Assembly: GCA_964631415.1 (NCBI GenBank)
Contig: CAZVZC010000005.1
Location: forward strand, 2,018 to 66,017
Reading direction: 5' to 3'
Length of the DNA stretch: 64,000 nt
From: an uncultured archaeon
GTDB taxonomy: Archaea; Asgardarchaeota; Thorarchaeia; Thorarchaeales; Thorarchaeaceae
The position numbers and the translations under genes are program-made. Of this stretch, positions 44,564 through 61,428 are shown one piece after another. The notes beneath the pieces are model-generated. The model did no database searches and had not been told where the DNA came from. It saw only the letters and a list, made by a program, of their open reading frames with translations. How positions within the stretch are numbered: position 1 is the stretch's first letter; each line of letters begins with the position of its first letter.

Positions 44564-44812
44564 TCATCCCAGACCGAAGACAGGCGGATACATCACAAAG
44601 TACTGAACGACAACAGTGAGCAGAATACCGCTCAAAACCAGCTGCTTGCCCCTTGAGGCATTCACTTCCGTTAGCCATAGAATCGCCCCGACAAGAACAA
44701 CGATGACCGATGAGATTCTGCCCACAAAAAGAAGGAACGCCCATATCTCTCCAAGGTGTTCGGCAATGATGTTTGCGAAGTCTACCAAAGGGCTAAGAAT
44801 CCACAGTGACAT
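44564..44812 (-). CDS. Hypothetical small membrane protein (2 hydrophobic helices)
   Basis: 82-aa ORF: WAFLLFVGRISSVIVVLVGAILWL...LVLSGILLTVVVQYFVMY. Confidence 0.4.
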   Translation of the reverse strand: MSLWILSPLVDFANIIAEHLGEIWAFLLFVGRISSVIVVLVGAILWLTEVNASRGKQLVLSGILLTVVVQYFVMYPPVFGLG

Positions 44813-48199: not shown

Positions 48200-51100
48200 T
48201 CACTTTCCATCACATCCTATGACTGCCTGGGCCTCCTCAAATTCGTAGGCCACGAGGTTTGGAGGTTTTACAGCATCTTCATTCAGATATTCTGCGGCTG
48301 TCAATACACACACTGTCTGGGTGGACTTGCAGACGTTACAGACCGGGTCGTTGACAGACTGCAGAAGTGCATTGAGTTCCTGCTGGCTCGGAAAGACAAT
48401 GTACGACTTCCTATCGGCACAGAGGTTGTAGTGACCATGATTTCGCAAAACCCGATCACTTGATTTGACAAGCTCTGCTTCAAGAGCCGCCACAGCCCTC
48501 TCCCTCAGCTCTACAATCTTTGAACCGCTGACGGCCCAAAGCCCTTCTTCGAGGTCCTGAAACACTTCCTTGTCCTTCACTCTCAATGCAACCAGCTTCT
48601 CATCCACCAGTAGCTCAGTCAGTGCCCGTCTTCCCTCATCTTCACTCATAGGAATCGATCTGCTTCTGACAGACTGGATTGCCGTTGTCTGGATGAAATC
48701 CAAGAGCGTGTTCCACCGAACTTGGCCCCCTGACAATTCCACAAAGTCTTGAATCGTTCCGAACCACAAACGCGTCTGAACTGCAGAAGCCGAAGATGGA
48801 ATCTGCTCATGCATCACGTTTCTCAGATGCCTATCCACAGGCCTGTCGACCATATCAACAGTGCTGATCTCGCTTCGTCCGTCCGCATGTTTCTTCCTTC
48901 TCTTGAGCTGGGCTTGTACCATGCTCTCGAGAGAGCTTGGAAACGCAGACACGACAGTGACAGAGTCGAAGTCTTCACTGGCATCCATAAGTTCTCTCAA
49001 ACGTGTGGCGGCAACACTTCCTCTTACAACGACGTAGAGCTCAGCAATTCCATTTCCCAAGCAATTCATACGATGTCGAATCCAGTCAAGCGTGCTCTCC
49101 ATTGACGAAGCTTTCAAATGCTCAGGGATTATCACTACTGCCTTATCCTCTATCACAATATCTGGCTCATCAGTAGACGTCTTTTCGGAAGTGGCCATCT
49201 TTCCAAGTGCCTTCAATATGTGCTGGGCGATGGCCTGCCTTACAGCCTCTAATCCCTTCCCGGGCAGTGTGAACAAGAAACCTCCAGAAACCAACGGCAG
49301 CGACTCCCGTTCGATTGTTCCCAGACAAATAAGGTCGTGAATCAACTCCGTTGTGTCCTCGTTTCTGATTCGTGGGTCTAATGTCGTCAGGAAATGCTGC
49401 AGTTCATCATCTGTAGCAGCCCTCTGTGATGCAAGAAATGCAACAACCCTATTTGCCAGTTCACCGAGCCTATCAAACACCAAGCACTGATGTACGTTCT
49501 CCTCTGAAGCACCCAACTCAGTTCCAGCGGCTTCTGACGCAGACGCGGGCAATACCGGGTATCTCTCCACACCACTGTGCTCATCACTCATGCTGTCCGC
49601 TACTGAATCGGTGACATCTGAAAGCTGATCATCTGGTGATAAACGGGACTGTGGTATCACGCTGAATCGTGTTGTGACAATCTCAAAGGTTTCCGTCTGA
49701 GGCGTGACAATAAGTGCTCTTCCAACTTTCAGTATCCTAAGATAGCGCTCCTGCTCCTCGTTTAGGGACATGAACCTGCCCCCAACCGAGCTGTCGTATG
49801 GTAGTCGGAAAGTGATTTTTGTTGACGTGTTGGCCAGAATGTTGGAAGAAATGTTAGGCCTAGTTGAAACTACGATAACACCCTGTCCAGTTGCTCGCTG
49901 TAACATGACCATAGATTCACCAGTGGTAACGTCCGCAGCGGACTGTCGCGTATAGCTCTCCGGCACAAGGTTGCTTGCCTCTTCCAAGACGACAACATGT
50001 ACAAGTTCGGGGGTGATGCCACGGCGCATCGCACCATCGAAGATGCGCTTTGCAACGAGATTGTAAAGCAACCGCGCCGCATCCATCCCACCAACCCTTG
50101 CGACATATCGTAGGTCGAATATGACTCGCCTGTCAAGTAGAGCTGACATCTTAACAGCATTAGGTCCTCCGCAGAGTATCGATCCAAGTGGTTCACGCGA
50201 GAGTATCTCAAGGCGATTTAGCAGTGCATCTCTTGTCAGGCTTCCTGTGCGGTCATTGCCCGCAAGTTCATTAACTGTGTCAATCAATGCATCTACTGAG
50301 TTGCCCCGCCTGTCTTCCCTAGCAACCTTCAGAACAGACTCCCTTAGCAGCTTCTCCATTGCAGGCGAGAGTTCGGTTGATGTTCCCATCTCCTTAAGCA
50401 GTTCTCTGAGGATGGCGAATGTTGTGTATGCGTGTCTTTCACCTGTGTCCACTTCTGGGTCCATCATGTCTATCACAAAAGAGGGATCCAATCCCGGGCG
50501 CAGAATCATGACTTCGTCGTTAATATCCACGAGGTCACTGTACTCTGACCCCTTAACGTCAAAGATCCACCATGGCACATTGGTCTTGAGAGTCAATTCG
50601 GCCATCAGGTGTTTCACCAGAGTTGTCTTTCCCGTTCCCGTGGCTCCCATGACAGCAACATGCTCTCTCAGCCACTCCTTCTTCAAACCCACTCTGTTGA
50701 GCTGTCGTCCTCCATAGACGGTCCATCCAATGAAGAGTTCATTGTCGACTAGCTCTCTTGCCGGGACTGGGAAGCTAGGTGTCTGTATGGCAGAAACAAC
50801 TGGCACACTCTGCACTGGAGTGTTCACGAACGCGGCAAGTCTACCCACATGCAGTTTCCGGGGTTTGAAATGGCGTCTTGTAAGCAGTTTCCAAGCCATG
50901 CCTGTACCGACCCTCATGTCCCTTACGAGGACACGACTATCCCCACCCCAAATGGATATGGCAAGTCCCATCACCCCCTCCTGAGCCATCTTCAACTGAG
51001 TTGCGCTTGGGGCGCTCACAACGACATATACAGTTGAGTTGAACCAGCTTTCATTGCCCTGCACTTGTTCGTACTGATCCAAGAGGTTTTTTTTCGCGGC

Positions 51101-52024
51101 TTGATCGACCAGCGAGTCCTCTCGCTTTCGCTCTCTCTCGCGAATGGATCTCCACTGACCCTCCATTTTCCTTCTCTCTCTGCCAGGTTTGGCACTGGAG
51201 AAGACACAGGTCAGACTCAAAGAAAACCCCTGTTTCAACGCGGTGGACAGGAAAGTGCCAACTTGCGATGATGAAGGTGAGGGTGCCACTCTAGGGGCAC
51301 CAGTGAACACCATTAGCGATTTCTGGAGGTCGGCTTCACCGTGCAATCGACTCTCCAGCATTCCTTCCTCGACAACGGATTCGGCCGCTTTTCCCAGAGC
51401 ATCGCCCCTCAATTGATGTAGTTCAAGATTGACTAGAGACGCCAGAAGGATTGCCTCTGTTCTCGTCGCCTCTCTCCTCAGGACTTGCATCATTTCTTCC
51501 AAGTGGCGACCGGTCATACTAATGAAAAACCTCAGAAACGGTTCTCCCTTAGCTAGTCCGGCCTCATATGCCACCGTGACTCTGTGATCCATACCTGCGC
51601 GTAGAGCCAATAGCATCGCCGTATTGTACTTAGGTTTGTCATCGGGTCCACACTCCACCGATCCTGGTGCAGATGTGATTTCAAGACAGCACATCGCAAT
51701 CAAACGGTTTCCTAGACAGACTACAAGGAACTCATCTTGCACTGAGGATGATATGCCTTCAACAAGAGTTCCTAGACATGCCAAGACTGCTCCTGCAGAG
51801 ATTGGCACTCCACAGACCAGAATCTCTACCAGAAGTTTCGACGGAACAGTGGGCTGTTCGATGAAACCGGCTAGTGGAAGCATGTAGACCACAATCAGAT
51901 ACAGGGCACATGCCACTGCTCCAAACGCATAGACTGTTCTAATCCAATGCCCACAATTCAACATGATTCTATCTGCGATGTTTCTCCTGTTGTTTCCGGG
52001 TGTGCTAGTGCTCATCATAAGCAA
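48200..52024 (-). CDS. Giant (1274 aa) membrane-anchored HerA/FtsK/VirB4-class P-loop ATPase with an uncharacterised C-terminal half
   Basis: N-terminal hydrophobic helices (VYAFGAVACALYLIVVYMLPLAGFI, LLVEILVCGVPISAGAVLACLGTLV). Central DUF87/HerA-type motifs: HVAVMGATGTGKTTLVKHL (Walker A), WWIFDVKGSEY and HVVVLEEASNLVP (Walker B). About 480 C-terminal residues carry no recognisable catalytic motif, only wHTH-like stretches. Confidence 0.75.
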   Translation of the reverse strand: MLMMSTSTPGNNRRNIADRIMLNCGHWIRTVYAFGAVACALYLIVVYMLPLAGFIEQPTVPSKLLVEILVCGVPISAGAVLACLGTLVEGISSSVQDEFLVVCLGNRLIAMCCLEITSAPGSVECGPDDKPKYNTAMLLALRAGMDHRVTVAYEAGLAKGEPFLRFFISMTGRHLEEMMQVLRREATRTEAILLASLVNLELHQLRGDALGKAAESVVEEGMLESRLHGEADLQKSLMVFTGAPRVAPSPSSSQVGTFLSTALKQGFSLSLTCVFSSAKPGRERRKMEGQWRSIRERERKREDSLVDQAAKKNLLDQYEQVQGNESWFNSTVYVVVSAPSATQLKMAQEGVMGLAISIWGGDSRVLVRDMRVGTGMAWKLLTRRHFKPRKLHVGRLAAFVNTPVQSVPVVSAIQTPSFPVPARELVDNELFIGWTVYGGRQLNRVGLKKEWLREHVAVMGATGTGKTTLVKHLMAELTLKTNVPWWIFDVKGSEYSDLVDINDEVMILRPGLDPSFVIDMMDPEVDTGERHAYTTFAILRELLKEMGTSTELSPAMEKLLRESVLKVAREDRRGNSVDALIDTVNELAGNDRTGSLTRDALLNRLEILSREPLGSILCGGPNAVKMSALLDRRVIFDLRYVARVGGMDAARLLYNLVAKRIFDGAMRRGITPELVHVVVLEEASNLVPESYTRQSAADVTTGESMVMLQRATGQGVIVVSTRPNISSNILANTSTKITFRLPYDSSVGGRFMSLNEEQERYLRILKVGRALIVTPQTETFEIVTTRFSVIPQSRLSPDDQLSDVTDSVADSMSDEHSGVERYPVLPASASEAAGTELGASEENVHQCLVFDRLGELANRVVAFLASQRAATDDELQHFLTTLDPRIRNEDTTELIHDLICLGTIERESLPLVSGGFLFTLPGKGLEAVRQAIAQHILKALGKMATSEKTSTDEPDIVIEDKAVVIIPEHLKASSMESTLDWIRHRMNCLGNGIAELYVVVRGSVAATRLRELMDASEDFDSVTVVSAFPSSLESMVQAQLKRRKKHADGRSEISTVDMVDRPVDRHLRNVMHEQIPSSASAVQTRLWFGTIQDFVELSGGQVRWNTLLDFIQTTAIQSVRSRSIPMSEDEGRRALTELLVDEKLVALRVKDKEVFQDLEEGLWAVSGSKIVELRERAVAALEAELVKSSDRVLRNHGHYNLCADRKSYIVFPSQQELNALLQSVNDPVCNVCKSTQTVCVLTAAEYLNEDAVKPPNLVAYEFEEAQAVIGCDGK

Positions 52025-52421
52025 ACTTCACGACCGCGCCACACTGTCGAATCATGATTCATCTGGGAATGCCAATTCCAAACACCCTGTGCCAGTGTCT
52101 GCAATTTGAACTCCCCCGCGACTCTTCCTCTGTCGACACATTGGCGTTCAGTTTTCAAGTGTTGTGACTAACTGGAGTCGCTGTTCCGTTGGTCACGTGA
52201 ACAGATTGGAGATGGCTAGTTTGCAATGGTTCTAGGAGGTTAAAAGACACGCTCCACTAACGAGAAAGCAGTGGATTGGATGAGAAACAGAGCCGTTTCC
52301 GAACAGGACATTGCCAGTTCAAGCGACGGACCAGTAATATCAATCCGATTCGTCAGAGGTACGCCCCGGACTCGATTGGGACCAAGGGGGCAAGACGACA
52401 AACCCTCCTGAGGCATGCTCA

Positions 52422-54386
52422 ATGAGGAATGAGTCTGTTCTTATTGGAGCTGCATTTGCCCTGATGCTCTTCATGTTTGTAGCCTGCACAGAAACAGCGT
52501 CTGCAGAAGAAGCGTCTATCTGTCGGGGTGACGTTGCAACCATCACCATTATCTTGCTCCAGAATGGCACCTATGGAAACCCTGTTTCCAACCAACCTGT
52601 GGAATTCTTCGATCAGACCCTTGATGTGTTCTTGGGTTTGGCCCTGACTGGTGTGGACGGGCACGCCCAGTTCGAATGGTCGCTACCATTAGACCATCCC
52701 CTTGGGCCGACCATCATTAATGCCACCTATCGTGGTAACGAAACCCTAGCACTCGCTCCTTCATTCCAATGGACATCGATTACTGTTCTCTCCCCAACAG
52801 AAATGGATATTCGAGTCGAACGGAGCGTTATCTTTCCCGGGGATGTCCTGCCATTCACAGTCCTACTCTTGAACGATATGGACCTTCCACTGCCGTATGC
52901 ACAACTCACTGTGTTTTGCAACAGAATGCCAGTCGTGTCCGGGGTAACGAACTCGTCCGGTTGGGCCCGGTTCACTGTACAGTGCAACGACTCATGGGCT
53001 TGTCTTGGAGAGAATGAAATCCGGGTTGTCTATGAACGAAACCTGACAGCCTTCAACGAGGCGGTAGCAGAGTCATTCATGATCACGATTGAGCAAGTTT
53101 CCACAAGCATCGAAGTTGCAGAGCCCCCTCCGGAGTCGTATGGGCTCAATGATACTCTGCTTACAGATTTCATTCTAAAGTCCGACGATGGAACACTACC
53201 TGGGGCCAGACTTCAAGTTTCTCTGGACGGAGTTTCTCTTGCTGTTGTCTTGACTGATGAATCTGGTACGGCATATGTGTGCCTAATCATAGACGCCAGA
53301 TTCAGTCTAGGTCCTCATACATTGACCATCGAATATCCGGGCAGTTCCCGATACGCTTCATGTTCACGTGAGATATATGTCACCGTTTCAAGCATTGCAA
53401 CTATTCAAGTCACTCTTCAAGAGCCTGTCATTATCAACACAGACAGCAACATCACCATTGAAATCGGGGATCTGTTCGGCCGTCCGATACCGAATGCTAC
53501 CGTCATTCTACGGGACCTAGTTAGCAACGAAACCCTTGCCAATGCTGTCCCTGCTGGCAAGACCTCTGTAGGCTTCAGCCTCCGCATTGTAGGAAGAAGC
53601 GGAGCTAGGAGCTTTCTTGTCCGCATTATTGGAAACGAGCACATCATGAACAGGACTTATGCATTCAGTGCCTTTGTGTGGTCTCGTCCTGACTTGATAC
53701 TAGTCAGAAGCACCATCAGGGGGTATGCTTCCCCCAATCAGCTGGTAACACTCGAGGTCAAGCTATGCGACTCCCAAATGGCCTACACTGGCACACTTGT
53801 GGAAGCTTGTATAGACAATACAACAGTCGTTTCCCGTGCATTCACGAATAGTTCTGGCCTTGCGGTCATTCAGATCAAAGCTCCGCAGCTTGAAGGTCCG
53901 TTCGATACATGGATTGTCTACCGAGGCAATCTGACTGCCTTTAGAATGTCTAATGCTCTGCACTATAGTTTCATCGTTAGCAGAACAGTCCCACTGGCGA
54001 TTGAACTGTACCACTACGCAGTCATTTTGCCACTGCAACAGCTCGAGGTTGTCTTAATGGCTTGTGCTCTCAATGGATCCTTGCTAGAGGGGGTGACAAT
54101 AAACTATGAATGGCTTTCCGTTCGAGGAAGCGCAGAGAGCACGCATGGTGGCTTGTCCCAACTGTACCTGCCAGTACCTGGATATCCGGGTTCGTTCAAT
54201 CTCTCCTACTGGACCGAATCCTCTTCATACATACTCTCATGTATCGGACACTTCGTCATCAATCTGAATGGAACTGAAGTTGCAGCGGCTCAAGGTGTCG
54301 GCATCACTGGTATGACAGCAAGCATATGCGTTTCACTAACACTGGTGGCTATACCAATCATCAGAAAGAGGTACCTGCTGGACTGA
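52422..54386 (+). CDS. Large secreted/surface protein with repeated Ig-like (beta-sandwich) modules and a C-terminal transmembrane anchor
   Basis: 654 aa. Signal-like N-terminus LIGAAFALMLFMFVACTETASA. Repeated modules follow the pattern G.P..NA.V......TNSSG.A....Y.GN. There are many N-x-S/T sequons. The C-terminus is GITGMTASICVSLTLVAIPIIRKRYLLD. Confidence 0.65.
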   Translation: MRNESVLIGAAFALMLFMFVACTETASAEEASICRGDVATITIILLQNGTYGNPVSNQPVEFFDQTLDVFLGLALTGVDGHAQFEWSLPLDHPLGPTIINATYRGNETLALAPSFQWTSITVLSPTEMDIRVERSVIFPGDVLPFTVLLLNDMDLPLPYAQLTVFCNRMPVVSGVTNSSGWARFTVQCNDSWACLGENEIRVVYERNLTAFNEAVAESFMITIEQVSTSIEVAEPPPESYGLNDTLLTDFILKSDDGTLPGARLQVSLDGVSLAVVLTDESGTAYVCLIIDARFSLGPHTLTIEYPGSSRYASCSREIYVTVSSIATIQVTLQEPVIINTDSNITIEIGDLFGRPIPNATVILRDLVSNETLANAVPAGKTSVGFSLRIVGRSGARSFLVRIIGNEHIMNRTYAFSAFVWSRPDLILVRSTIRGYASPNQLVTLEVKLCDSQMAYTGTLVEACIDNTTVVSRAFTNSSGLAVIQIKAPQLEGPFDTWIVYRGNLTAFRMSNALHYSFIVSRTVPLAIELYHYAVILPLQQLEVVLMACALNGSLLEGVTINYEWLSVRGSAESTHGGLSQLYLPVPGYPGSFNLSYWTESSSYILSCIGHFVINLNGTEVAAAQGVGITGMTASICVSLTLVAIPIIRKRYLLD

Positions 54387-54397
54387 AATCCCAATGG

Positions 54398-54504
54398 TGC
54401 TCCGGCCGGGATTCGAACCCGGGTCTGGGGATCGAGAGTCCCCAATGCTGGGCCGGACTACATTCGGCCGCACAACGAATCTGACTCGGTGCGTCTACCG
54501 GAGC
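54398..54504 (-). tRNA. tRNA-Glu (anticodon CTC) with a 32-nt intron between positions 10 and 11
   Basis: Minus strand. Acceptor GCTCCGG/CCGGAGC. Anticodon arm GGGGA-CTCTCGA-TCCCC. 4-nt variable loop. T arm CCGGG-TTCGAAT-CCCGG. The intron is 54463-54494. The BHB is central helix CGGT:GCCG, bulges AG|A and AA|T, distal helix CGCAC/GTGCG. The spliced D arm is GTG-TAGTCCGGCCCAG-CAT, typical of tRNA-Glu. CCA is encoded. Confidence 0.8.
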
Positions 54505-54758
54505 TTGGGCTGTGCCAGCCCGGAGCGGGCCATCACCCTCTACGAAGCAAATAAGGCTTTCTCTGCAAAGACGCGGTATTTTCGATTTGAGAGGGATGCT
54601 GGCAAAGAACTACGGTCTATCATTGAGCGAACCATGGATGGTTTCAGAGCACCAGCCACGTTTCCGATTCGTTTCAACCTGGCTTGCTCACTTTCAATGA
54701 CAGCCGATTGAATCCAAACATTCAAGCGGCCTCGATCTGCTTACCGTGACTGGGTGTA

Positions 54759-54965
54759 TCATGGACCGAATAGCTGGGTGAGACTACTCCAGCTGTCTTG
54801 GAGGAGCTGAAGCAGACTGCTCACAACACCTTGTGCCCATCCTGTTGCCTCGAGGATGACTGCTATTATGATGGAAACAGTGACCACAGCTAGACCAAGA
54901 AGCAGGCTCTCCTCTACCAAGGGTCCTCCAATCTCATTGTTCTTCAGCTCAGTCTGCTTCGTCAT
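54759..54965 (-). CDS. Small protein with a class-III-signal-peptide-like (archaeal pilin/Flp-like) N-terminus
   Basis: 68 aa: MTKQTELKNNEIG|GPLVEESLLLGLAVVTVSIIIAVIL... It has a short polar leader, Gly at -1, Glu at +5 and then a hydrophobic helix. It lacks the usual K/R at -2. It lies downstream of, and co-oriented with, the secretion-type ATPase. Confidence 0.35.
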   Translation of the reverse strand: MTKQTELKNNEIGGPLVEESLLLGLAVVTVSIIIAVILEATGWAQGVVSSLLQLLQDSWSSLTQLFGP

Positions 54966-55128: not shown

Positions 55129-56925
55129 TCAGCCCCGGTACACAAAGGGATGACCGTTTTTCCATAGCCGTTCCCCTATGAACATAGTAGTGTCCATACC
55201 GGACCCGCCAATTTCGTTCTCAAGTTCATGAAGCAGCCTCTCATAGGCGGGCATATGACTTTGAATGCTTTGTTCCCGGGAATGAATCACAAATGCTCCA
55301 TCCTCCCCCCACTTCGGGATTCTAGGCTTAGGCAGCTGACTTGACAAGACCGTATTCAGCCCCACGAATCTCAGTAGGCCATCAATAACCTGTCTTCTCA
55401 CTTCAACAACCTCTTTGAGTCGTCGTGTAGCTTCTCCTGGTGTGGGCCGCTCCATAGTGACTATGAGGTCCATAAGTGCAACACTCGACTTGTCAATGCC
55501 GTGATCCGATGTCCAGCGAGAAATGAGGCTTGATGCAGAGTCACTATGGCACGTCTGCATCGTATGAAGACCAGCCGCAATTGCCTGAAACAAAGCACGA
55601 CTGTGTTCTGCAGTCTGAATCTCGCCAAGAACAAGATAGTCAGGTGATCTGTGAAGGCTCTTGACAATCTCCTTGCTCTTGTCAAATCCGGGCTCGTTCT
55701 CGTCTACTGGATCGACCCTGATTCTTACTTGGTGATAGCCTTTGATGGCCCTACTCTCGACGGCATCTTCAATGTAGACTTTTCTCCAGCTTCGTGGCGT
55801 GGTCATGTCCAGAGCATTCAGAAGAGTAGTCTTCCCGGACCCCGGACCACCTGTTATCGTAATGTTGAACCTAGCAGACACAGCAAGCAACAGTATCGCT
55901 GCAGCCTCCATACTCAGTGTGCCGTTGCGAACCAAGTCTGCTACCGAATATGGGCTCCTACGGGCCCTGCGCATCTCAAGGTGCAGTCCATCTGGACTCA
56001 AAGGTGGTAGGCTCAGAGAGAGCCGCAGGGCCGCATCACAGACCGACATCTCTGTCTTGAGTGAGGGGTTTCTCCGGTCGAGATGGAAATTGCTCTCAGC
56101 CCTTACCAGTGTGACGATACGATCAACATCATCTTCGTTGAGGGTCGTTGTCGAACAACACCTTCCCAAACGCCGATGGTCAAAGTAAATCTGACTCTCC
56201 GGCCGGTCTAGGTAAACTTCCTCTACCTCGTCATCCAGCAGAATCGGAAGGAAGCATCGGAGGGCTGTTGATCGATGTGCTATGATCTCTGCGATTCTAG
56301 TCCTAGTGATAGTGCCTACCTCTGGCAGTGAGTGCGAGATTCTCGCTGCAACGATTCCGGAAATTCGTGTAAGTCTGGTGTTGATGCTCTCCCTGGACAG
56401 AAACGGTGTATTATCAAACAGACTCCTGTCGGCACCCAATTCATTCAGTAACGTCATTTCAAGGCGAGTTCTAACAAGTGGGACCGCTTGGTGAAGCAGA
56501 CCTGAACTGGATCTACACTCACGAAAGACTGACAGGTAGGGCCCAACAAGATATGCTTCAGATACCAGCTGAATCGTGTCAAAGAAACCTTGGTCCTCAA
56601 TGTAGACTGATTCCCAGCCCTCCGATTGCCAAGGTGGCTCGTTGAGCAGTCTTCCATCGTGTCCTCCAAGATGAACTAGGCTCTTCTCAGGTTCGACGAC
56701 CAAGACCTTGGCTCTCCGGCCATCATCAGAACTGTTCAAGGCTAGCTGTCTGCATGGCCCAGGCTCTGCATAATCACATTCTGTGCACCGTGCCTTGGGG
56801 CATACGACAACAGTAACCAAGTGTTTTACCACATGGATCCAACTCCATAGCATCGGATGTGAATCGAATCCGCAAGCCTGAAGCTGCAAACAGCAACCGT
56901 TTGTTTCGTCAAGCGGCAGATACAA
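55129..56925 (-). CDS. Type II/IV secretion / type IV pilus assembly ATPase (VirB11/FlaI/TadA family)
   Basis: 598 aa. Walker A ITITGGPGSGKTTLLNAL, Asp/Walker B region SPDYLVLGEIQTAE and His box GLHTMQTCHSDS. There is an N-terminal extension with the Cys cluster CPKARCTECDYAEPGPC. Confidence 0.8.
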   Translation of the reverse strand: MYLPLDETNGCCLQLQACGFDSHPMLWSWIHVVKHLVTVVVCPKARCTECDYAEPGPCRQLALNSSDDGRRAKVLVVEPEKSLVHLGGHDGRLLNEPPWQSEGWESVYIEDQGFFDTIQLVSEAYLVGPYLSVFRECRSSSGLLHQAVPLVRTRLEMTLLNELGADRSLFDNTPFLSRESINTRLTRISGIVAARISHSLPEVGTITRTRIAEIIAHRSTALRCFLPILLDDEVEEVYLDRPESQIYFDHRRLGRCCSTTTLNEDDVDRIVTLVRAESNFHLDRRNPSLKTEMSVCDAALRLSLSLPPLSPDGLHLEMRRARRSPYSVADLVRNGTLSMEAAAILLLAVSARFNITITGGPGSGKTTLLNALDMTTPRSWRKVYIEDAVESRAIKGYHQVRIRVDPVDENEPGFDKSKEIVKSLHRSPDYLVLGEIQTAEHSRALFQAIAAGLHTMQTCHSDSASSLISRWTSDHGIDKSSVALMDLIVTMERPTPGEATRRLKEVVEVRRQVIDGLLRFVGLNTVLSSQLPKPRIPKWGEDGAFVIHSREQSIQSHMPAYERLLHELENEIGGSGMDTTMFIGERLWKNGHPFVYRG

Positions 56926-57022: not shown

Positions 57023-58090
57023 TCAGGCAGACAATTCTGGGGCCTTCGTGGTACCTTCGTCCAAGATTTTCTTTATCATCCCGTAGTGGTCGCGGATGCT
57101 ATACTCTGCCACTTCTGTCGCGTTGGAAACCAGTTTCTGAGTCAACACAGAATGCCTCCCATGCTCAATAGCCACTATCCGGTCACTAGCATAGGCGACC
57201 GAAACAACAAATATGAACGGGTTTCGACCACCTCTCCTTGAGGCCGGTATGAGATCGAGGACTACAAACATTTTGTTCCTCATGGCGTTCTCATATTCCT
57301 TGGAATCCCATTCTCTCAACTTTGCTTTGCCAACAACCTCCGGACTATTCATGAGCATCGACAACACCCTAGGGATGTAATCCTCGGGCTGTCTCAGATC
57401 TGGTGCATGACCTGTCACAGACTTGAGTCGCATCGCTTCGCGGACCATTGCACGCACATTCACTCTGTGCCCGCACTTCTCAAAGACATCAGCTATCTCC
57501 TCCAGAGTTATCGGAGCTTCGTCCTTGAACTCACGTACTGCCATCAGCAGACATACGGCCATTAGGAGAATGTTATTGGTGATTCTGTCTTTTGCATCTG
57601 AGATGACTTTCTTGTAGAGATACGCAGTCCGATCGCGTACCTGATCGCTCAGCATTAGTGATTTCGAAACATGATTGAGCGTTCTGAGTGCCCGGTACTT
57701 TGCCTCACTCCTCCCGATTCTTATGCGTGCACTGTACACAGTCTTCAGTCGTTTGAATCTCTTCTGCGCAAGGCCGGACAAGGCTTGACCGTGAGCATCT
57801 CGGAAATACGTGTCCTTGTGAAAGCCCATGTAGCTTCCAAGCCCGTCTACAATATGCATTCTGTTTCCCAGTGAAACATACATGGCTGCATCCGGAGTTT
57901 CGCCATGTTGTTCCTCCCCCATCTGGTAAGTTGGATGCACATATTCCCTAGAAACCACAAGTCCACATTCGGTGCATACTATGTGCCCCTGACTGGTCAC
58001 CAGTTGCCCCGAACAGTCCGGACAGGACCATGAAGAGGTTGCGAGCTGTTCACCTGTTTCATTAACCAAGGGCTGTACCACAGGAGACAC
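57023..58090 (-). CDS. tfb: Transcription initiation factor IIB (TFB)
   Basis: N-terminal zinc ribbon CPDCSGQLVTSQGHIVCTECGLV followed by two cyclin-fold repeats. 355 aa. Confidence 0.9.
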   Translation of the reverse strand: MSPVVQPLVNETGEQLATSSWSCPDCSGQLVTSQGHIVCTECGLVVSREYVHPTYQMGEEQHGETPDAAMYVSLGNRMHIVDGLGSYMGFHKDTYFRDAHGQALSGLAQKRFKRLKTVYSARIRIGRSEAKYRALRTLNHVSKSLMLSDQVRDRTAYLYKKVISDAKDRITNNILLMAVCLLMAVREFKDEAPITLEEIADVFEKCGHRVNVRAMVREAMRLKSVTGHAPDLRQPEDYIPRVLSMLMNSPEVVGKAKLREWDSKEYENAMRNKMFVVLDLIPASRRGGRNPFIFVVSVAYASDRIVAIEHGRHSVLTQKLVSNATEVAEYSIRDHYGMIKKILDEGTTKAPELSA

Positions 58091-58248: not shown

Positions 58249-58614
58249 TCAAGTGATCATGATATAGAACGTATTAGATGCGAAAGTCTTGCTCTGTGAG
58301 GGCGTTGGCTTAGCAATCCCAAGCACAACTCTAAGGCCCCCCAAAGATCCCAGTACCTCAAGCCCTTTGTTCTCACTTCTCCGGAAGACGGTGCCCTCAC
58401 CGTACAGCCTCGCCTGTTCTCCCTTAGGAATAGCCTTGGAGTCAATGACCACATCAACGTGATCCTTGACACCAAACCTACTGGAAAGCGCTTCTGGAAG
58501 TTCAATCGTCAGTGTTGCACCATCACTCTTGGACGACACCTTCAAGAGCTTGAGCCTCTTAGTGTCCGTTTCCCTGATCAGTTCGATGATGGCATCCTTG
58601 AGCCTGACACCCAT
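58249..58614 (-). CDS. rpo8: RNA polymerase subunit Rpo8 (RpoG) / eukaryotic Rpb8-like
   Basis: From the ATG at 58614: MGVRLKDAIIELIRETDTKRLKLLKVSSKSDGATLTIELPEAL...ARLYGEGTVFRRSENKGLEVLGSLGGLRVVLG...FYIMIT. This parallels yeast Rpb8 (..KVCRIEAAS..CKLTLDINVELFP...YVMYGTAYKFEE...YYSFGGLLMRLEG...AYLLIRR). It is adjacent to tfb. Confidence 0.55.
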   Translation of the reverse strand: MGVRLKDAIIELIRETDTKRLKLLKVSSKSDGATLTIELPEALSSRFGVKDHVDVVIDSKAIPKGEQARLYGEGTVFRRSENKGLEVLGSLGGLRVVLGIAKPTPSQSKTFASNTFYIMIT

Positions 58615-58737
58615 AACCCTAGCACATCCAGTAGATTGAGTCTTCGTGGTGAGCGGCCGAAGGCATTGAATTAAACCTGTCGCTGTTCTCTTGTGCCGTT
58701 TTTTAGGCACTGCAGTGACAGTTGTTCGGTGGGCCCG

Positions 58738-61428
58738 ATGCTTCCGAAACTGCTAGCCATACTATTCCTGTCCGTGGCAATGGCATCCTACTTTGTGGCA
58801 CCGGTTTCGGCGTTCTATTTTGAACTCTACTACTTCGAAACCGACAAGATGGTGTACGAGGTCGGGGAAACAATCGAGATGGTCGTCAAGGTCGCTGCTG
58901 AGTTCAGCGAAACTGGGTCATGTGACGCCTATTTCGCTGTTGTCAGAAGTAACGACTCCGTGACTGTCTTCTATGACGGCTACAGCATCCCCTCTGAGTC
59001 TGGTCTTCGCTTTCTGACTTCGCCTTACGTCATAATGCCCCGTGACATCACCCCGGGAGTCATTGGCGCGAAAATGCAGGTGGTCTTTAACATCGTCGTA
59101 TATGACGAGTATACCCAAGGCAATCACACGCAAATCGAGGTTGATGTGAAAAGAGGTCACCTAACAACGTTTCCTGAAAGCCCACTGTCGGTTGAGTTCG
59201 GGACCAACACGACAGTTCTGCTGAGGATAGCAAGTCCACACAACAACAACGTGGTTCTATCCAACGAAACCGTTTCACTCTACGTCCAGAACCCAGACGG
59301 TTTACCAGTGTTTCAAGCGGAAGCATCGACAGACTCACAAGGTCTGGTGCAGTTGAATTGGACCAAATCCATGGGTCCACCAGGGGTATACAATCTGACT
59401 ATCAATGGAGCCGGCACTGCTTCATTCCTGCCGTTTTCGGAATCGCTACAAGTCACTGTGCAACTTGGAGCATCGAGTCTGGAAGTACTGAGTGCCACGG
59501 AACAGGTCTACTGCCAATCCTCCGACTGTACTCAAACAGAGTTCGCGAAAGTCACGGTTGAACACTTCAGCACATCGCACTCTCCTATCTATGATAGCGA
59601 AGTGCAATGGAATGCATCATTTGGCTGCGGGTTCATGAACAATCTAGGGAACGGGACCTATAGTGCACTAATCCCTTTCAGTACCGGACCCGGACTGTAT
59701 ACCATTGGCCTCACAGCGACAAATGCTCTTTATCAGATTGCTGCGAGGACAGTTGTCATACGAGCCAATAGCAGACCACTATTGGCGAACGTCACACTGC
59801 TCTCTGAAGTAGTATGCGGCACGCCATTCCAAGTCCGAGTGCTAATCGCGGACGGGTTGAGCGGAACCCCAGTCGGATCACTTCCGTTCACACTCGGGGT
59901 TACAGTGGGTAACGAAAGCCTGACCATAGTAGAGGGTGCCACCAACTCCTCAGGTGCCCTGCAAATCACAAGGTACATACCAACCACATTCTGGGGTACC
60001 GGGTTTCTATCTTTGATTATCCATAACACAAGCCGCTACAGCGATCTATCGGAAACACTACCGATTGATGTCCTATACTGTCCTAAGGTGTCGGTTCAAA
60101 TAGAAACCCCGATTATGGTGAACCATGATGCAGAAGTTCGCCTGCTCCTGTTAGATCCCATTGGATCTCCGGTCTTCGGTGCAGTAGTCGAGCTTCATAC
60201 TCCCGACAATGTCACAGCGGTCATGAACACTACGAGCTATGACGGTACCACACTCCTCCGCTGGCGAGTTCCTCTAGGAACTGGCCTTGGAAACCAGACT
60301 CATTCGCTAGTGATACACAGAAACGGTGGAAGGTTCATCAGTCATACAACGAGAGACTTGGTGTTCATGGTTCTTTGCCCACTTTTTCTTGAGCCTTTCA
60401 ATGGCACACTGCAGGTCATACGGGGTCACAACGTATCTATTCGACTCACAATGGTGTCGGAAGGACCCAAGTACCAACTAATCGACCTTATGCTCCGAAG
60501 CAATGACAGTTCATTGACAACTTCAGCTGTGGTTTCCACTGACACCTATACGGAAATCACGCTGACGGCGAACTCAAGCATCGTTCCGGGTCCATACGTG
60601 GTCTATGCAGAAGTCCTATCCGGGCCATTTGTCATATTGAACCAGCCTCAGATCGAAGTCATTGTCATTGGGACTCTACAAGCGAGTTTCACCATTGTTT
60701 CGGCATTCTATGCTGAAGCCCTCGTTGTCAATCCTATTGTGAGGGATGACACTGATAGCACACCAGAATCGGTATCGGCAACCTTGTATTTCATTGATTG
60801 CGGACTTCAGATCTCCTTGGATCTGGCTCTTCCTCGTATGGCATGGTCCATTTCACTGCCCCTTCAAGTGGCCCCCGGAGCTCAGAATGTCACAATCGAG
60901 ATCAGCCTTCCTTGGTTTGTCGCGGCACATAGGTCTATTCTCGTATTTGTATGGATGCGGACAAGAATGGTGATCTCAGTATCGACCTACAAACCAAACA
61001 AGACTGGTTCTGTCGTTGGGCTTGAACTGGTTCAAGTCCCTGACAGCACATCGAGTAGCTCCCCCGGTTCAATCATAAGTCCTCCACCAATCTTGTTCAA
61101 TGGCACGACTTCAACCTTGTTGCCCACTGCACGAGAAACCTCTCTCACAAGCTGTCCGAGGTTGAGCTCTGGCACTAACAACCTGTCGACTGTGTCGGCA
61201 AACTGCCTCACTTCCGAATCAGGGAACGGCCATACAGTTCTAAGCCTCAAGGAACGGACCGACAAGGAACTCGTTCTGTTCACTACCACTTCTTCCACAG
61301 TTCTCGAAGTACTTCCGAAGGAAACTACCCCCCAATCCGCTGTCTGGGGCCCTGAAACAACCACATCAGTCAGAAGGGCGCTCTCTCTCAGAATCTTGTC
61401 CGTCAGTCTCCGCACGAGCCTGTCGTGA
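58738..61428 (+). CDS. Very large secreted/surface protein with repeated Ig-like modules (paralog-like to 52422..54386); its 3' end overlaps korA
   Basis: Signal peptide MLPKLLAILFLSVAMASYFVAPVSA from the ATG at 58738; the track ORF starts at 58693. It has the same G.P/NSSG/Y.GN-type beta-sandwich repeats and many N-x-S/T sequons. The last ~130 codons (61032-61428) are antisense to korA, are Ser/Thr/Leu-rich and contain no anchor helix. Confidence 0.6.
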   Translation: MLPKLLAILFLSVAMASYFVAPVSAFYFELYYFETDKMVYEVGETIEMVVKVAAEFSETGSCDAYFAVVRSNDSVTVFYDGYSIPSESGLRFLTSPYVIMPRDITPGVIGAKMQVVFNIVVYDEYTQGNHTQIEVDVKRGHLTTFPESPLSVEFGTNTTVLLRIASPHNNNVVLSNETVSLYVQNPDGLPVFQAEASTDSQGLVQLNWTKSMGPPGVYNLTINGAGTASFLPFSESLQVTVQLGASSLEVLSATEQVYCQSSDCTQTEFAKVTVEHFSTSHSPIYDSEVQWNASFGCGFMNNLGNGTYSALIPFSTGPGLYTIGLTATNALYQIAARTVVIRANSRPLLANVTLLSEVVCGTPFQVRVLIADGLSGTPVGSLPFTLGVTVGNESLTIVEGATNSSGALQITRYIPTTFWGTGFLSLIIHNTSRYSDLSETLPIDVLYCPKVSVQIETPIMVNHDAEVRLLLLDPIGSPVFGAVVELHTPDNVTAVMNTTSYDGTTLLRWRVPLGTGLGNQTHSLVIHRNGGRFISHTTRDLVFMVLCPLFLEPFNGTLQVIRGHNVSIRLTMVSEGPKYQLIDLMLRSNDSSLTTSAVVSTDTYTEITLTANSSIVPGPYVVYAEVLSGPFVILNQPQIEVIVIGTLQASFTIVSAFYAEALVVNPIVRDDTDSTPESVSATLYFIDCGLQISLDLALPRMAWSISLPLQVAPGAQNVTIEISLPWFVAAHRSILVFVWMRTRMVISVSTYKPNKTGSVVGLELVQVPDSTSSSSPGSIISPPPILFNGTTSTLLPTARETSLTSCPRLSSGTNNLSTVSANCLTSESGNGHTVLSLKERTDKELVLFTTTSSTVLEVLPKETTPQSAVWGPETTTSVRRALSLRILSVSLRTSLS

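Follow-up and report, generated by a model that had tools for sequence, protein, structure and literature searches.

The closest described counterparts of the protein analysed here are CedB and CedD of the Sulfolobales, both of which are required for DNA import in Saccharolobus; in each, a transmembrane (TM) segment is followed by an N-domain that can be superposed on parts of that of VirB4, and by an ATPase of the HerA clade (PMC11868833). With respect to the neighbouring genes, a similar arrangement has been described for the 'subclade 4D' loci of Thermoproteales, in which the ATPase arCOG05558 is found with the TFIIB homologue arCOG05559 and RPB8; Makarova et al. suspected that the 4D loci had left pilus biology (PMC4858521). 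According to a survey in a 2026 preprint, type-IV-filament systems are widespread in archaea except Asgardarchaeota. No known organisms are more closely related to eukaryotes than the Asgard archaea, whose DNA exchange and cell contact are essentially unknown. In this study, we analysed a stretch of 64,000 nucleotides (nt) from an uncultured archaeon of the family Thorarchaeaceae (contig CAZVZC010000005.1, positions 2,018 to 66,017; hereafter the window). The window carries on its minus strand, at 48200-52024, the gene of a giant ATPase with an intact Walker A motif. No description of an Asgard VirB4/CedB/HerA/FtsK-like family of this kind was found in the literature.

The analysis showed that the gene encodes a real, conserved, membrane-anchored motor-type protein of Thorarchaeota, in which a VirB4/CedD-like motor is joined to a novel C-terminal half. 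On the basis of its established architecture and conservation, the fold relationship of its N-terminal 790 residues and its association with particular genes, we propose that the protein would be the motor of a chromosomally fixed, vertically inherited and so far undescribed cell-surface/DNA-transfer apparatus of Asgard archaea. We assign to this proposal a probability of about 0.5. The functional statements on the whole cluster rest on computation.

The open reading frame (ORF), the longest in the region, is uninterrupted over 1274 codons from a TTG, and its reality is supported by both the translation and full-length homologues. ATG codons are found at positions 3 and 4 of the ORF. The ATG at 52018 is the likely start and gives a protein of 1272 amino acids (aa), from which the residues are numbered hereafter. 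All motifs quoted in the initial annotation were located in the translation. The Walker A motif GATGTGKT, in the region quoted as GATGTGKTT, corresponds to aa 458-465 (nt 50624-50647), FDVKGSEY to aa 486-493, and the Walker B motif VVVLEEASNL to aa 675-684 (nt 49967-49996). An arginine-finger motif, STRPN, was found at aa 718-722 (at 49847-49873). The helix-rich stretch VVAFLASQRAATDDELQHFL...LIHDLICLGTIERE opens with VVAFLASQ and occupies aa ~858-905, and the acidic stretch corresponds to a Ser/Thr-rich, variable linker (aa 786-845, 49484-49663) with 12 Asp and Glu versus 2 Lys and Arg residues. All features within the gene lie on the minus strand. The protein had been said to be more than twice the size of canonical HerA or CedB. 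This holds, since the NCBIfam profiles have lengths of 590 for CedB, 527 for CedD and about 490-560 for HerA, as against the 1272 aa found here.

A search of 5.8 billion proteins gave 230 matches. The best 120 of these, drawn from NCBI, JGI, ENA and Logan assemblies, are 1183-1292 aa in length, with query coverages of 92-100% and identities of 50-90%. The homologues among the matches listed are from metagenome-assembled genomes (MAGs) of Thorarchaeota, Promethearchaeota or Sifarchaeia, and are named 'ATP-binding protein', 'DUF87 domain-containing protein' or 'hypothetical'; among them, no name assigns a function. A scan of one genome per GTDB species revealed 78 loci with identities of 41-86%. 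Their titles are Thorarchaeota or Promethearchaeota, except for a few 'archaeon' and one 'Hermodarchaeota', and the closest relative among them is the Thorarchaeota MAG OWC3. The gene appears to be single-copy and class-wide. In an alignment of 23 sequences, invariant residues are found along the full length, including the N-terminal 440 and the C-terminal 430 residues. The sole unconserved stretch is the linker, which is also of low confidence or disordered in the AlphaFold model. Homologues match it in length, and invariant residues occur from end to end; the ORF is therefore neither a chance frame nor a fused one.

The N-terminus was analysed by Kyte-Doolittle hydropathy and by an AlphaFold model of aa 1-800 (13-sequence alignment, mean pLDDT 72), the protein having been modelled in two parts. 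Two strong hydrophobic segments coincide with the AlphaFold helices 15-50 and 61-86. The two methods therefore agree on a two-helix TM hairpin (aa ~23-86, 51761-51952), as expected from the earlier statement that at least two hydrophobic N-terminal helices anchor the protein in the membrane. Given a basic leader and a short outside loop, the positive-inside rule suggests that the residues after ~88, the bulk of the protein, should be cytoplasmic. The hairpin is followed by an N-domain of mixed alpha/beta structure (aa 89-420, 50759-51754), assigned as VirB4-type by Foldseek of the model. A RecA-like ATPase core (aa 421-785, 49664-50758), to which the motifs and the family matches below were mapped, comes next.

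The P-loop core belongs to the DUF87/HerA pattern, as had been proposed: Pfam DUF87 (PF01935) matched aa 443-607 with 52.1 bits (E 1e-13) against a gathering score of 23.2. It was the sole Pfam family above threshold; TrwB_AAD_bind, HerA_C and FtsK_SpoIIIE gave sub-threshold matches on the P-loop. The best NCBIfam model was CedD (E 2e-11, 43.1 bits), in which aa 438-780 aligned with profile positions 208-522 of 527; the orthologue P0137 gave E 1e-27 and 97.1 bits with the same model. Both scores are below the CedD equivalog cut-off of 600. The NCBIfam HerA models, CedB and VirB4 ranked after CedD, and all were far under their cut-offs; CedB, for example, gave 17.2 bits against a cut-off of 700. 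When a profile of the N-terminal part was compared with PDB sequences, only HerA/DUF87 chains were found, at the Walker A region and at the Walker B/arginine-finger region.

Foldseek comparison of the aa 1-800 model with PDB extended the similarity beyond the ATPase core. The top thirteen matches, with 800-860 aligned columns and E-values from 4e-17 to 1e-10, were all chains of full-length TrwK/VirB4 from the type IV secretion system of R388. The next matches were DndH-C, HerA, the C-domain of VirB4 and TrwB (E 1e-9 to 1e-7, roughly 390-450 columns). The global TM-score against VirB4 was low (about 0.29, with alignment ranges not reported by Foldseek) because the orientation of the domains differs and the model is only moderately confident. 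The assignment of the N-domain as VirB4-type is well supported by this model, although it is not residue-exact. In the initial annotation, about 450 residues ahead of the ATPase core had been described as having no recognisable motif. It is correct that no Pfam family matched aa 89-420. Since TrwK/VirB4 aligns over ~800-860 columns, compared with ~390-410 for the targets consisting of the ATPase only, these residues can nevertheless be identified as the TM hairpin plus a VirB4-type N-domain. In HerA structures (4d2i), ~390 of 800 residues align, as compared with ~840 for VirB4, and only two short strands precede the P-loop strand; no HerA-type HAS-barrel was recognised in the model, and it is presumably absent. 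Of the earlier class assignment, HerA/FtsK, the DUF87/HerA clade stands, while FtsK was reduced to a generic P-loop similarity and the layout turned out to be VirB4/CedD-like. The suggested affinity to viral packaging motors came down to the same generic similarity. The protein is a membrane-tethered P-loop motor of VirB4/CedD architecture, and probably an active one.

The C-terminal 430 residues are conserved as strongly as the motor within Thorarchaeota. The AlphaFold model of this half (15 sequences, pLDDT 68, moderate confidence) shows two modules separated by a disordered loop. In C-module 1 (aa 846-1045, 48884-49483), a winged-helix-like unit of three helices plus a hairpin (aa ~850-915) is predicted to be followed by a long helix and then by an alpha/beta domain of the order beta-beta-alpha-beta-alpha-beta-alpha (aa ~954-1045), in which R999-G-S and SAFP are invariant. 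C-module 2 (aa 1075-1272, 48203-48796) has a similar order in the model: a helical/winged-helix-like part, a long helix and an alpha/beta domain. Its H1194, C1200 and C1227-x2-C1230 are invariant and C1237 is nearly invariant, and these residues form a possible metal site. Comparison of the two modules by hhalign aligned the wing/helix/first-strand region in register, and the predicted topologies are alike; the E-value of 0.01 and the probability of 4% are, for an internal duplication, not significant.

The long C-terminal half had been noted to be without assignment, and this was borne out by profile, Pfam and Foldseek searches, none of which gave a significant match. The C-terminal profile gave only chance-level matches to PDB sequences at E<=10 (e.g. 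TAF4, RTEL1 and UEV1), and no family was found consistently when 15 C-terminal sequences were scanned against Pfam. The C-terminal half is therefore a conserved domain set without detectable relatives in the searches made. The top fold matches were all weak and non-significant; recurrent among them were the winged-helix proteins RTP and ORC, as well as restriction-endonuclease-like folds, among which were the nuclease domain of Hef/XPF/Mus81 (TM 0.52 on target), FANCM-FAAP24, FokI, EcoO109I, Can2 and YaeQ. As for the winged helix-turn-helix (wHTH) DNA-binding modules proposed earlier, winged helices are indeed predicted by AlphaFold, but in a model of pLDDT 68 and with fold matches that are not significant. 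DNA binding by the C-terminal half would be plausible on this model.

Searching 1.84 billion cluster representatives with the N-part profile gave 2694 matches at E<=1e-3 and 122 at E<=1e-30, and local domain profiling of the best matches divided the family into three tiers. Thorarchaeota representatives of the first tier have the complete C-terminal part. The second tier is an orthologue of 937-940 aa (P0137/P0289), in which the N-domain and the ATPase (E 1e-97) are joined to C-module 1 alone, the one module common to both forms; C-module 2 was found in Thorarchaeota members only. The third tier comprises distant proteins of 900-1440 aa; those with a name are from Helarchaeota and Ranarchaeia. 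They have TM helices, the ATPase and an N-domain that can still be recognised, and their C-termini are unrelated. Profile comparison of the C-terminal part with these Helarchaeota and Ranarchaeia relatives was not significant. Every Asgard relative examined has both Walker motifs, A and B, intact, and the Pfam DUF87 cut-off was also passed by P0137, P0139 and P0151. The family is thus a set of VirB4-like membrane ATPases that spans the Asgard archaea and differs in its C-terminal extensions from lineage to lineage; the protein in the window represents its Thorarchaeota form.

In the Helarchaeota proteins P0144, P0145 and their relatives (1393-1440 aa), four to five N-terminal TM helices are predicted, and the C-terminal extensions of ~500 aa are unrelated to that of Thorarchaeota. 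These proteins gave no Pfam match at E<=0.01 although their Walker motifs are intact. A plasmid or phage origin of the gene was also considered and is not supported; the matches found by tblastn were limited to DUF87 cores, with identities of only 23-27%.

The conserved gene neighbourhood, which the initial annotation had not considered, is the strongest functional clue. About 20 kb are collinear across Thorarchaeota. Along the strand of the ATPase gene, the upstream part consists of the genes of a 911-aa secreted protein (opposite strand), a 121-153-aa protein, a TFIIB-like protein, a T2SSE ATPase and a 68-aa protein, and of tRNA-Glu. Next come, in head-to-head orientation, the gene of a 654-aa Ig-rich protein (opposite strand) and the ATPase gene itself, and then an amino-acid-kinase-family gene and the genes of ribosomal protein S10 and GlmS. 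By such neighbours (the TFIIB-like, S10, GlmS and amino-acid-kinase-family genes), the window is archaeal. In four rearranged Thorarchaeota loci (L028, L066, L061 and L068), the housekeeping genes are displaced; the Ig-rich gene still adjoins the ATPase gene, and the TFIIB-like and T2SSE genes are located within ~12 kb.

The association was also observed outside Thorarchaeota, where the genes around it differ. In three Helarchaeota loci (L083, L084 and L088), a TFIIB-like gene lies directly upstream of the VirB4-like gene and is co-directional with it. The encoded protein is 41-43% identical to that of the window and is thus better conserved than the ATPase (26-27%). A T2SSE homologue (33-38% identical) is found 8-10 kb away in each of these loci, and in L083 and L088 a 62-aa pilin-like gene lies between the VirB4-like and T2SSE genes. 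The Ig-rich surface protein was not detected in the Helarchaeota loci. The locus of a third lineage, that of P0289 (L086), contains a string of a TFIIB-like protein (43%, E 2e-87), a T2SSE homologue (36%) and a 69-aa pilin-like peptide. This string is ~7 kb, or six unrelated genes, away from a divergent pair of an Ig-rich homologue (649 aa, E 8e-14) and the VirB4-like gene. In L087, an Ig-rich homologue (E 3e-19) is likewise divergently paired with the orthologue.

Between the VirB4-like and T2SSE genes of Helarchaeota, Roadblock/LC7-like proteins and Arf/Ras-like small GTPases are encoded (L083, 17565-20083; L084, 3851-4735). Homologues of the two proteins of the Roadblock region were found downstream in some rearranged Thorarchaeota loci (L041 and L068, ~+9 to +12 kb).

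The most constant of the neighbours is the 654-aa surface protein (52422-54386, plus strand), whose gene adjoins the ATPase gene in 73 of the 73 loci where it was detected, the rearranged ones included. The protein has a signal-like N-terminal helix, Ig-like repeats and a predicted C-terminal TM anchor; the Pfam matches (Big_3_5, Big_1 and CarboxypepD_reg) are all under cut-off. The 68-aa protein (54759-54965, minus strand) gave no Pfam match and is classified by motif only. Its leader varies in length and sequence and is followed by a near-invariant G-GPLVEESLLLGLAVVTVSIVIAVILQATGWAQ in ~67 Thorarchaeota loci, the hyphen marking the putative cleavage site; in the window, the sequence reads G-GPLVEESLLLGLAVVTVSIIIAVIL..., with Glu at +5. 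A short leader that ends in Gly, the site of cleavage, and a conserved hydrophobic mature N-terminus with Glu at +5 are characteristic of Flp/type IV prepilins; both are found here, and the protein would be Flp/type-IV-pilin-like by this motif. The counterparts in Helarchaeota L083 and L088 and in L086 have the motif KRG-SP(V/L)(V/I)EEG and are 62-69 aa in overall length (L083, 16498-16686, minus strand; L086, 2714-2923, plus strand). The pilin-like protein is far better conserved than any neighbouring protein.

The T2SSE-superfamily secretion ATPase (55129-56925, minus strand; Pfam T2SSE 5e-23) has a Cys-rich N-terminus. Among NCBIfam models, it matched the TadA family (8e-30), FlaI (5e-23), TrbB (8e-21) and VirB11 (7e-19), all under the respective cut-offs. 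The divergent TFIIB-like protein (57023-58090, minus strand) has a Zn ribbon and one detectable cyclin repeat (Pfam TFIIB 4e-6, Zn_Ribbon_TF 3e-4), and scored 62 bits with the NCBIfam TFIIB model against a cut-off of 384. It is 41-43% identical among Thorarchaeota, Helarchaeota and the third lineage.

A promoter-like motif, GGGGAGTTCAAAT (52104-52117, minus strand), is located ~85 nt upstream of the start codon of the ATPase gene. The motif GGGGAGTTC(A/T)(A/T)AT(G), or G[AGT]GTTC[ATC]WAW, was found 66-102 nt upstream of the start in 64 of the 78 Thorarchaeota loci, and is probably the BRE/TATA-like promoter element of the ATPase gene itself. No promoter motif shared by all genes of the cluster was found: GRGTTCWWAW occurs four times in the window versus 1.5 expected, and 7 of 100 shuffles reached that number.

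Compared with the known systems, the first ~790 residues have the same domain order as CedD and CedB of the Sulfolobales (NF053655 and NF041017). CedD is the best-scoring curated family for both the window protein and P0137. The Ced genes and the Asgard gene are all chromosomal, non-mobile and lineage-wide, and a type-IV-filament system and a TFIIB paralogue are found both in the Ced genomes (Ups, TFB3) and in the Asgard loci. There are also clear differences. The scores of 43-97 bits are far from the 600 of a CedD member, and the match was confined to the ATPase part (positions 200-527) of the CedD profile. The Asgard protein is 2.2-2.4 times longer, and its conserved C-terminal extension of ~430 aa is absent from CedB and CedD. 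No CedA/VirB6-like partner was seen nearby, and the hosts are Asgard archaea instead of Thermoproteota.

VirB4/TrwK/TrbE (PDB 8rtd, 7o42, 7o41 and 4ag5) ranked first by structure, with a match that extends over the N-domain as well as the ATPase. Walker A, Walker B and the arginine finger (GATGTGKT, VVVLEEA and STRPN) are intact and invariant in the family, the membrane attachment is N-terminal, and an ATPase of the VirB11 superfamily is encoded nearby. On the other hand, the Asgard protein has extra C-terminal modules and lacks membership of the VirB4 family at the sequence level, in addition to the low TM-score. No VirB6-, VirB8- or VirB2-type genes were found nearby, and the pilin-like neighbour is Flp-type instead of VirB2-type. 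HerA (PF01935) shares with the Asgard protein the Walker B 'VVLEEA' and the 'RP' arginine finger, which align with solved HerA proteins, as well as the DUF87 match. HerA is soluble, whereas the Asgard protein is membrane-anchored, and the alignment covers only the ATPase region.

The likeness to the 4D loci concerns the neighbouring genes, not the VirB4-like ATPase, and was drawn from their description. In both cases, a secretion ATPase with a Cys-rich N-domain lies by a divergent TFIIB homologue that is preceded by a small protein. In the Asgard loci, the 121-153-aa protein holds the position of RPB8, which is a lead only, its RPB8 identity being unconfirmed. The Asgard loci contain, beyond the 4D set, the pilin-like gene, the Ig-rich surface protein and the giant VirB4-like ATPase, and are without the 4-5-TM protein of 4D; one Helarchaeota locus (L084) has a 7-TM protein. 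This 500-aa protein (L084, 2309-3811, plus strand; at least seven predicted TM helices) is encoded directly after the T2SSE ATPase. It gave no Pfam match and has no homologue in the Thorarchaeota loci, and it may be a TadC/FlaJ-like platform.

On the proposal that the protein drives a cell-surface/DNA-transfer apparatus, the following mechanism can be envisaged. The protein would be a membrane-anchored translocation ATPase of the VirB4/CedB/CedD kind and of hexameric type, which may form a ring at the membrane. Fusions of VirB3 with VirB4 exist, and the two-helix hairpin would stand in place of VirB3 or of the TM segment of CedB/CedD. The other parts would be the TadA/VirB11-like ATPase, the Flp-like pilin, the Ig-rich anchored surface protein and a dedicated TFIIB-like factor. 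The Flp-like filament would serve cell contact, and the motor would then move DNA across the membrane, with both the substrate and the direction suggested by analogy with Ups pili, Ced and TFB3. The role of the C-modules might be to retain or choose the nucleic-acid substrate, or else to link the motor with its partners, and the TFIIB-like protein may regulate the system or be a partner of it. The conjugation-like DNA translocase suggested in the initial annotation thus pointed in the right direction, VirB4/TrwK being the best fold match and CedD the best family, with DNA as the substrate a matter of analogy. The most specific form of the proposal is an intercellular DNA-exchange machine of Asgard archaea (at least Thorarchaeia, Helarchaeales and a third lineage). 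It would combine a Flp/Tad-like filament, a VirB4/CedD-like pump with its own DNA-binding C-modules in Thorarchaeia and a dedicated TFIIB paralogue, as a counterpart of Ups, Ced and TFB3. We put this form forward tentatively, as a possibility that has the odds somewhat against it.

If the proposal is correct, the cluster would be a class-wide, syntenic and testable candidate for cell-cell DNA transfer or surface-structure assembly. It would extend the idea of 'domesticated conjugation' of the Ced/Ted type beyond Thermoproteota, and the 430-residue C-terminal half would be a target for structure determination.

Several facts weigh against the proposed apparatus. The collinearity is class-wide, so that synteny in Thorarchaeota alone is weak evidence; the linkage for this reason rests on the four rearranged Thorarchaeota loci and the four non-Thorarchaeota loci. 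A paralogous Helarchaeota subfamily (L089-L093) is without such neighbours in the short flanks available, and none were seen within the available flanks of a distant DUF87 protein (L085) either. No polytopic membrane protein of the VirB6/CedA or TadB/C type is encoded within +/-10 kb in the Thorarchaeota loci, the search being confined to these flanks and not extended to the rest of the genome; the channel partner is therefore missing or encoded elsewhere. The cluster contains no DNA-processing gene, that is, no relaxase, nuclease, ParA or recombination gene. The VirB4 model TIGR00929 gave 16.7 bits against 643, on the P-loop only, and PF03135 (CagE_TrbE_VirB) did not match at E<=1. In PDB and BFVD, Foldseek found no match to the C-terminal model at E<=1e-3. 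Neither C-module has invariant nuclease-type catalytic residues (acidic, lysine; PD-(D/E)xK), and the C-terminal fold, if nuclease-like, is probably inactive for that reason. The motif upstream of the ATPase gene is not conserved upstream of the other cluster genes across the loci, with no sign of a common regulon.

The rival that survives best is that the motor serves filament assembly or protein export only. VirB4 dislocates pilin during T-pilus biogenesis, and the Asgard protein may in the same manner assemble the Flp-like filament or secrete and anchor the Ig-rich protein, with the C-modules in a regulatory or protein-docking role. The evidence from fold and gene association is the same as that for DNA transfer. 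Moreover, the neighbour that varies least is a surface protein and no enzyme of DNA processing, the absence of relaxase, nuclease, ParA and recombination genes fits export, and DNA binding by the C-terminal half is a hypothesis. However, CedD and the whole HerA/VirB4/TrwB neighbourhood are DNA-handling motors, the winged-helix predictions and the weak endonuclease-like matches point to nucleic acid, and a separate TadA-like ATPase is already present for the Flp-like filament. We consider a motor for export alone rather unlikely, yet the most serious of the rivals. If it is true, the protein would still represent a new architecture in the FtsK-HerA superfamily.

A chromosome pump like FtsK comes next. 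FtsK has a membrane anchor, a motor, a flexible linker and a C-terminal winged helix. FtsK/SpoIIIE and the Asgard protein have in common the membrane anchor, the linker, the RecA-like pump and a predicted C-terminal winged helix in the same order. The protein might thus be a housekeeping, membrane-tethered translocase of double-stranded DNA that clears or segregates the chromosome at division, with C-terminal winged helices reading chromosome polarity like FtsK gamma. Such a role would be in keeping with a gene that is apparently single-copy and class-wide, and located in a stable housekeeping setting (S10, GlmS and the amino-acid-kinase-family gene) and not in a mobile island. Nevertheless, FtsK_SpoIIIE (PF01580) scored only 18.4 bits, short of its cut-off of 24, and matched just the P-loop (aa 452-499); Ftsk_gamma did not match. 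The N-domain is different, and two TM helices are found in place of four or more. No FtsK structure was among the top 50 fold matches, in which VirB4 with its N-domain came first, and the conserved partners are surface/pilus-type genes. A division pump is therefore improbable.

Less probable still is a membrane-associated defence ATPase, in which a HerA-type motor would be combined with an endonuclease-like effector as in HerA-DUF4297, HerA-Sir2 or DndFGH. The PDB profile and Foldseek matches do include anti-phage HerA complexes and DndH-C, and the weak C-terminal fold matches are restriction-endonuclease-like. PADLOC gave weak matches to mad8 (1e-14) and to HerA models, which cover the ATPase core only (HerA, aa ~441-506) and do not amount to membership of a defence system; the PDB matches are limited to the P-loop core as well. 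In addition, the gene occupies one syntenic position across the whole class, unlike defence islands, the N-domain is VirB4-like in the model instead of a HerA HAS-barrel, and residues of the PD-(D/E)xK type are conserved in neither C-module. Partners such as NurA/Mre11/Rad50, Sir2 and DUF4297 were not found among the neighbours in the window or in the related loci. A defence role thus has very little in its favour. Finally, the fusion of a TM-HerA gene with a separate C-terminal gene by assembly or annotation, which the initial annotation had allowed for and which the unusual length and the low-complexity linker would suggest, and nothing further, is ruled out for all practical purposes by the uninterrupted 1183-1292-aa protein on many independent NCBI, JGI, ENA and Logan contigs, including the complete 2.58-Mb chromosome CP070658.1, where the gene encodes a single uninterrupted protein, by the residues invariant throughout, and by the truncation of the shorter representatives at contig ends.

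Two further conserved genes lie at the upstream end of the collinear region, and it is uncertain whether their products are part of the system. The small protein of 121-153 aa (58249-58710, minus strand) heads the TFIIB-ATPase-pilin string and is conserved in 63 Thorarchaeota loci; it gave no Pfam, NCBIfam or PDB match that would confirm an identity as RPB8/Rpo8. The 911-aa secreted or anchored protein (58693-61428, plus strand) shows a weak MG2-like match and is syntenic in Thorarchaeota, and it was not detected in the loci of the other lineages (Helarchaeota, L086). Both the 654-aa and the 911-aa proteins have signal-like N-termini and Ig/MG-like repeats, and show 29-45% identity where the ATPase shows 41-60%. 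This fast evolution is as expected for exposed surface proteins.

At the other side of the ATPase gene, the aminotransferase and GlmS genes flank the gene of a conserved protein of 82 aa (44564-44812, minus strand), in which two TM helices are predicted and which is 62-96% identical across Thorarchaeota. It has no family match; its size and topology are like those of small conjugative-pilin-like or CedA1-like proteins, and nothing ties it to the cluster. The tRNA-Glu(CTC) gene is located at 54399-54473 (minus strand), between the Ig-rich and pilin-like genes, and a 105-aa ORF that overlaps it (54394-54711) is probably spurious.

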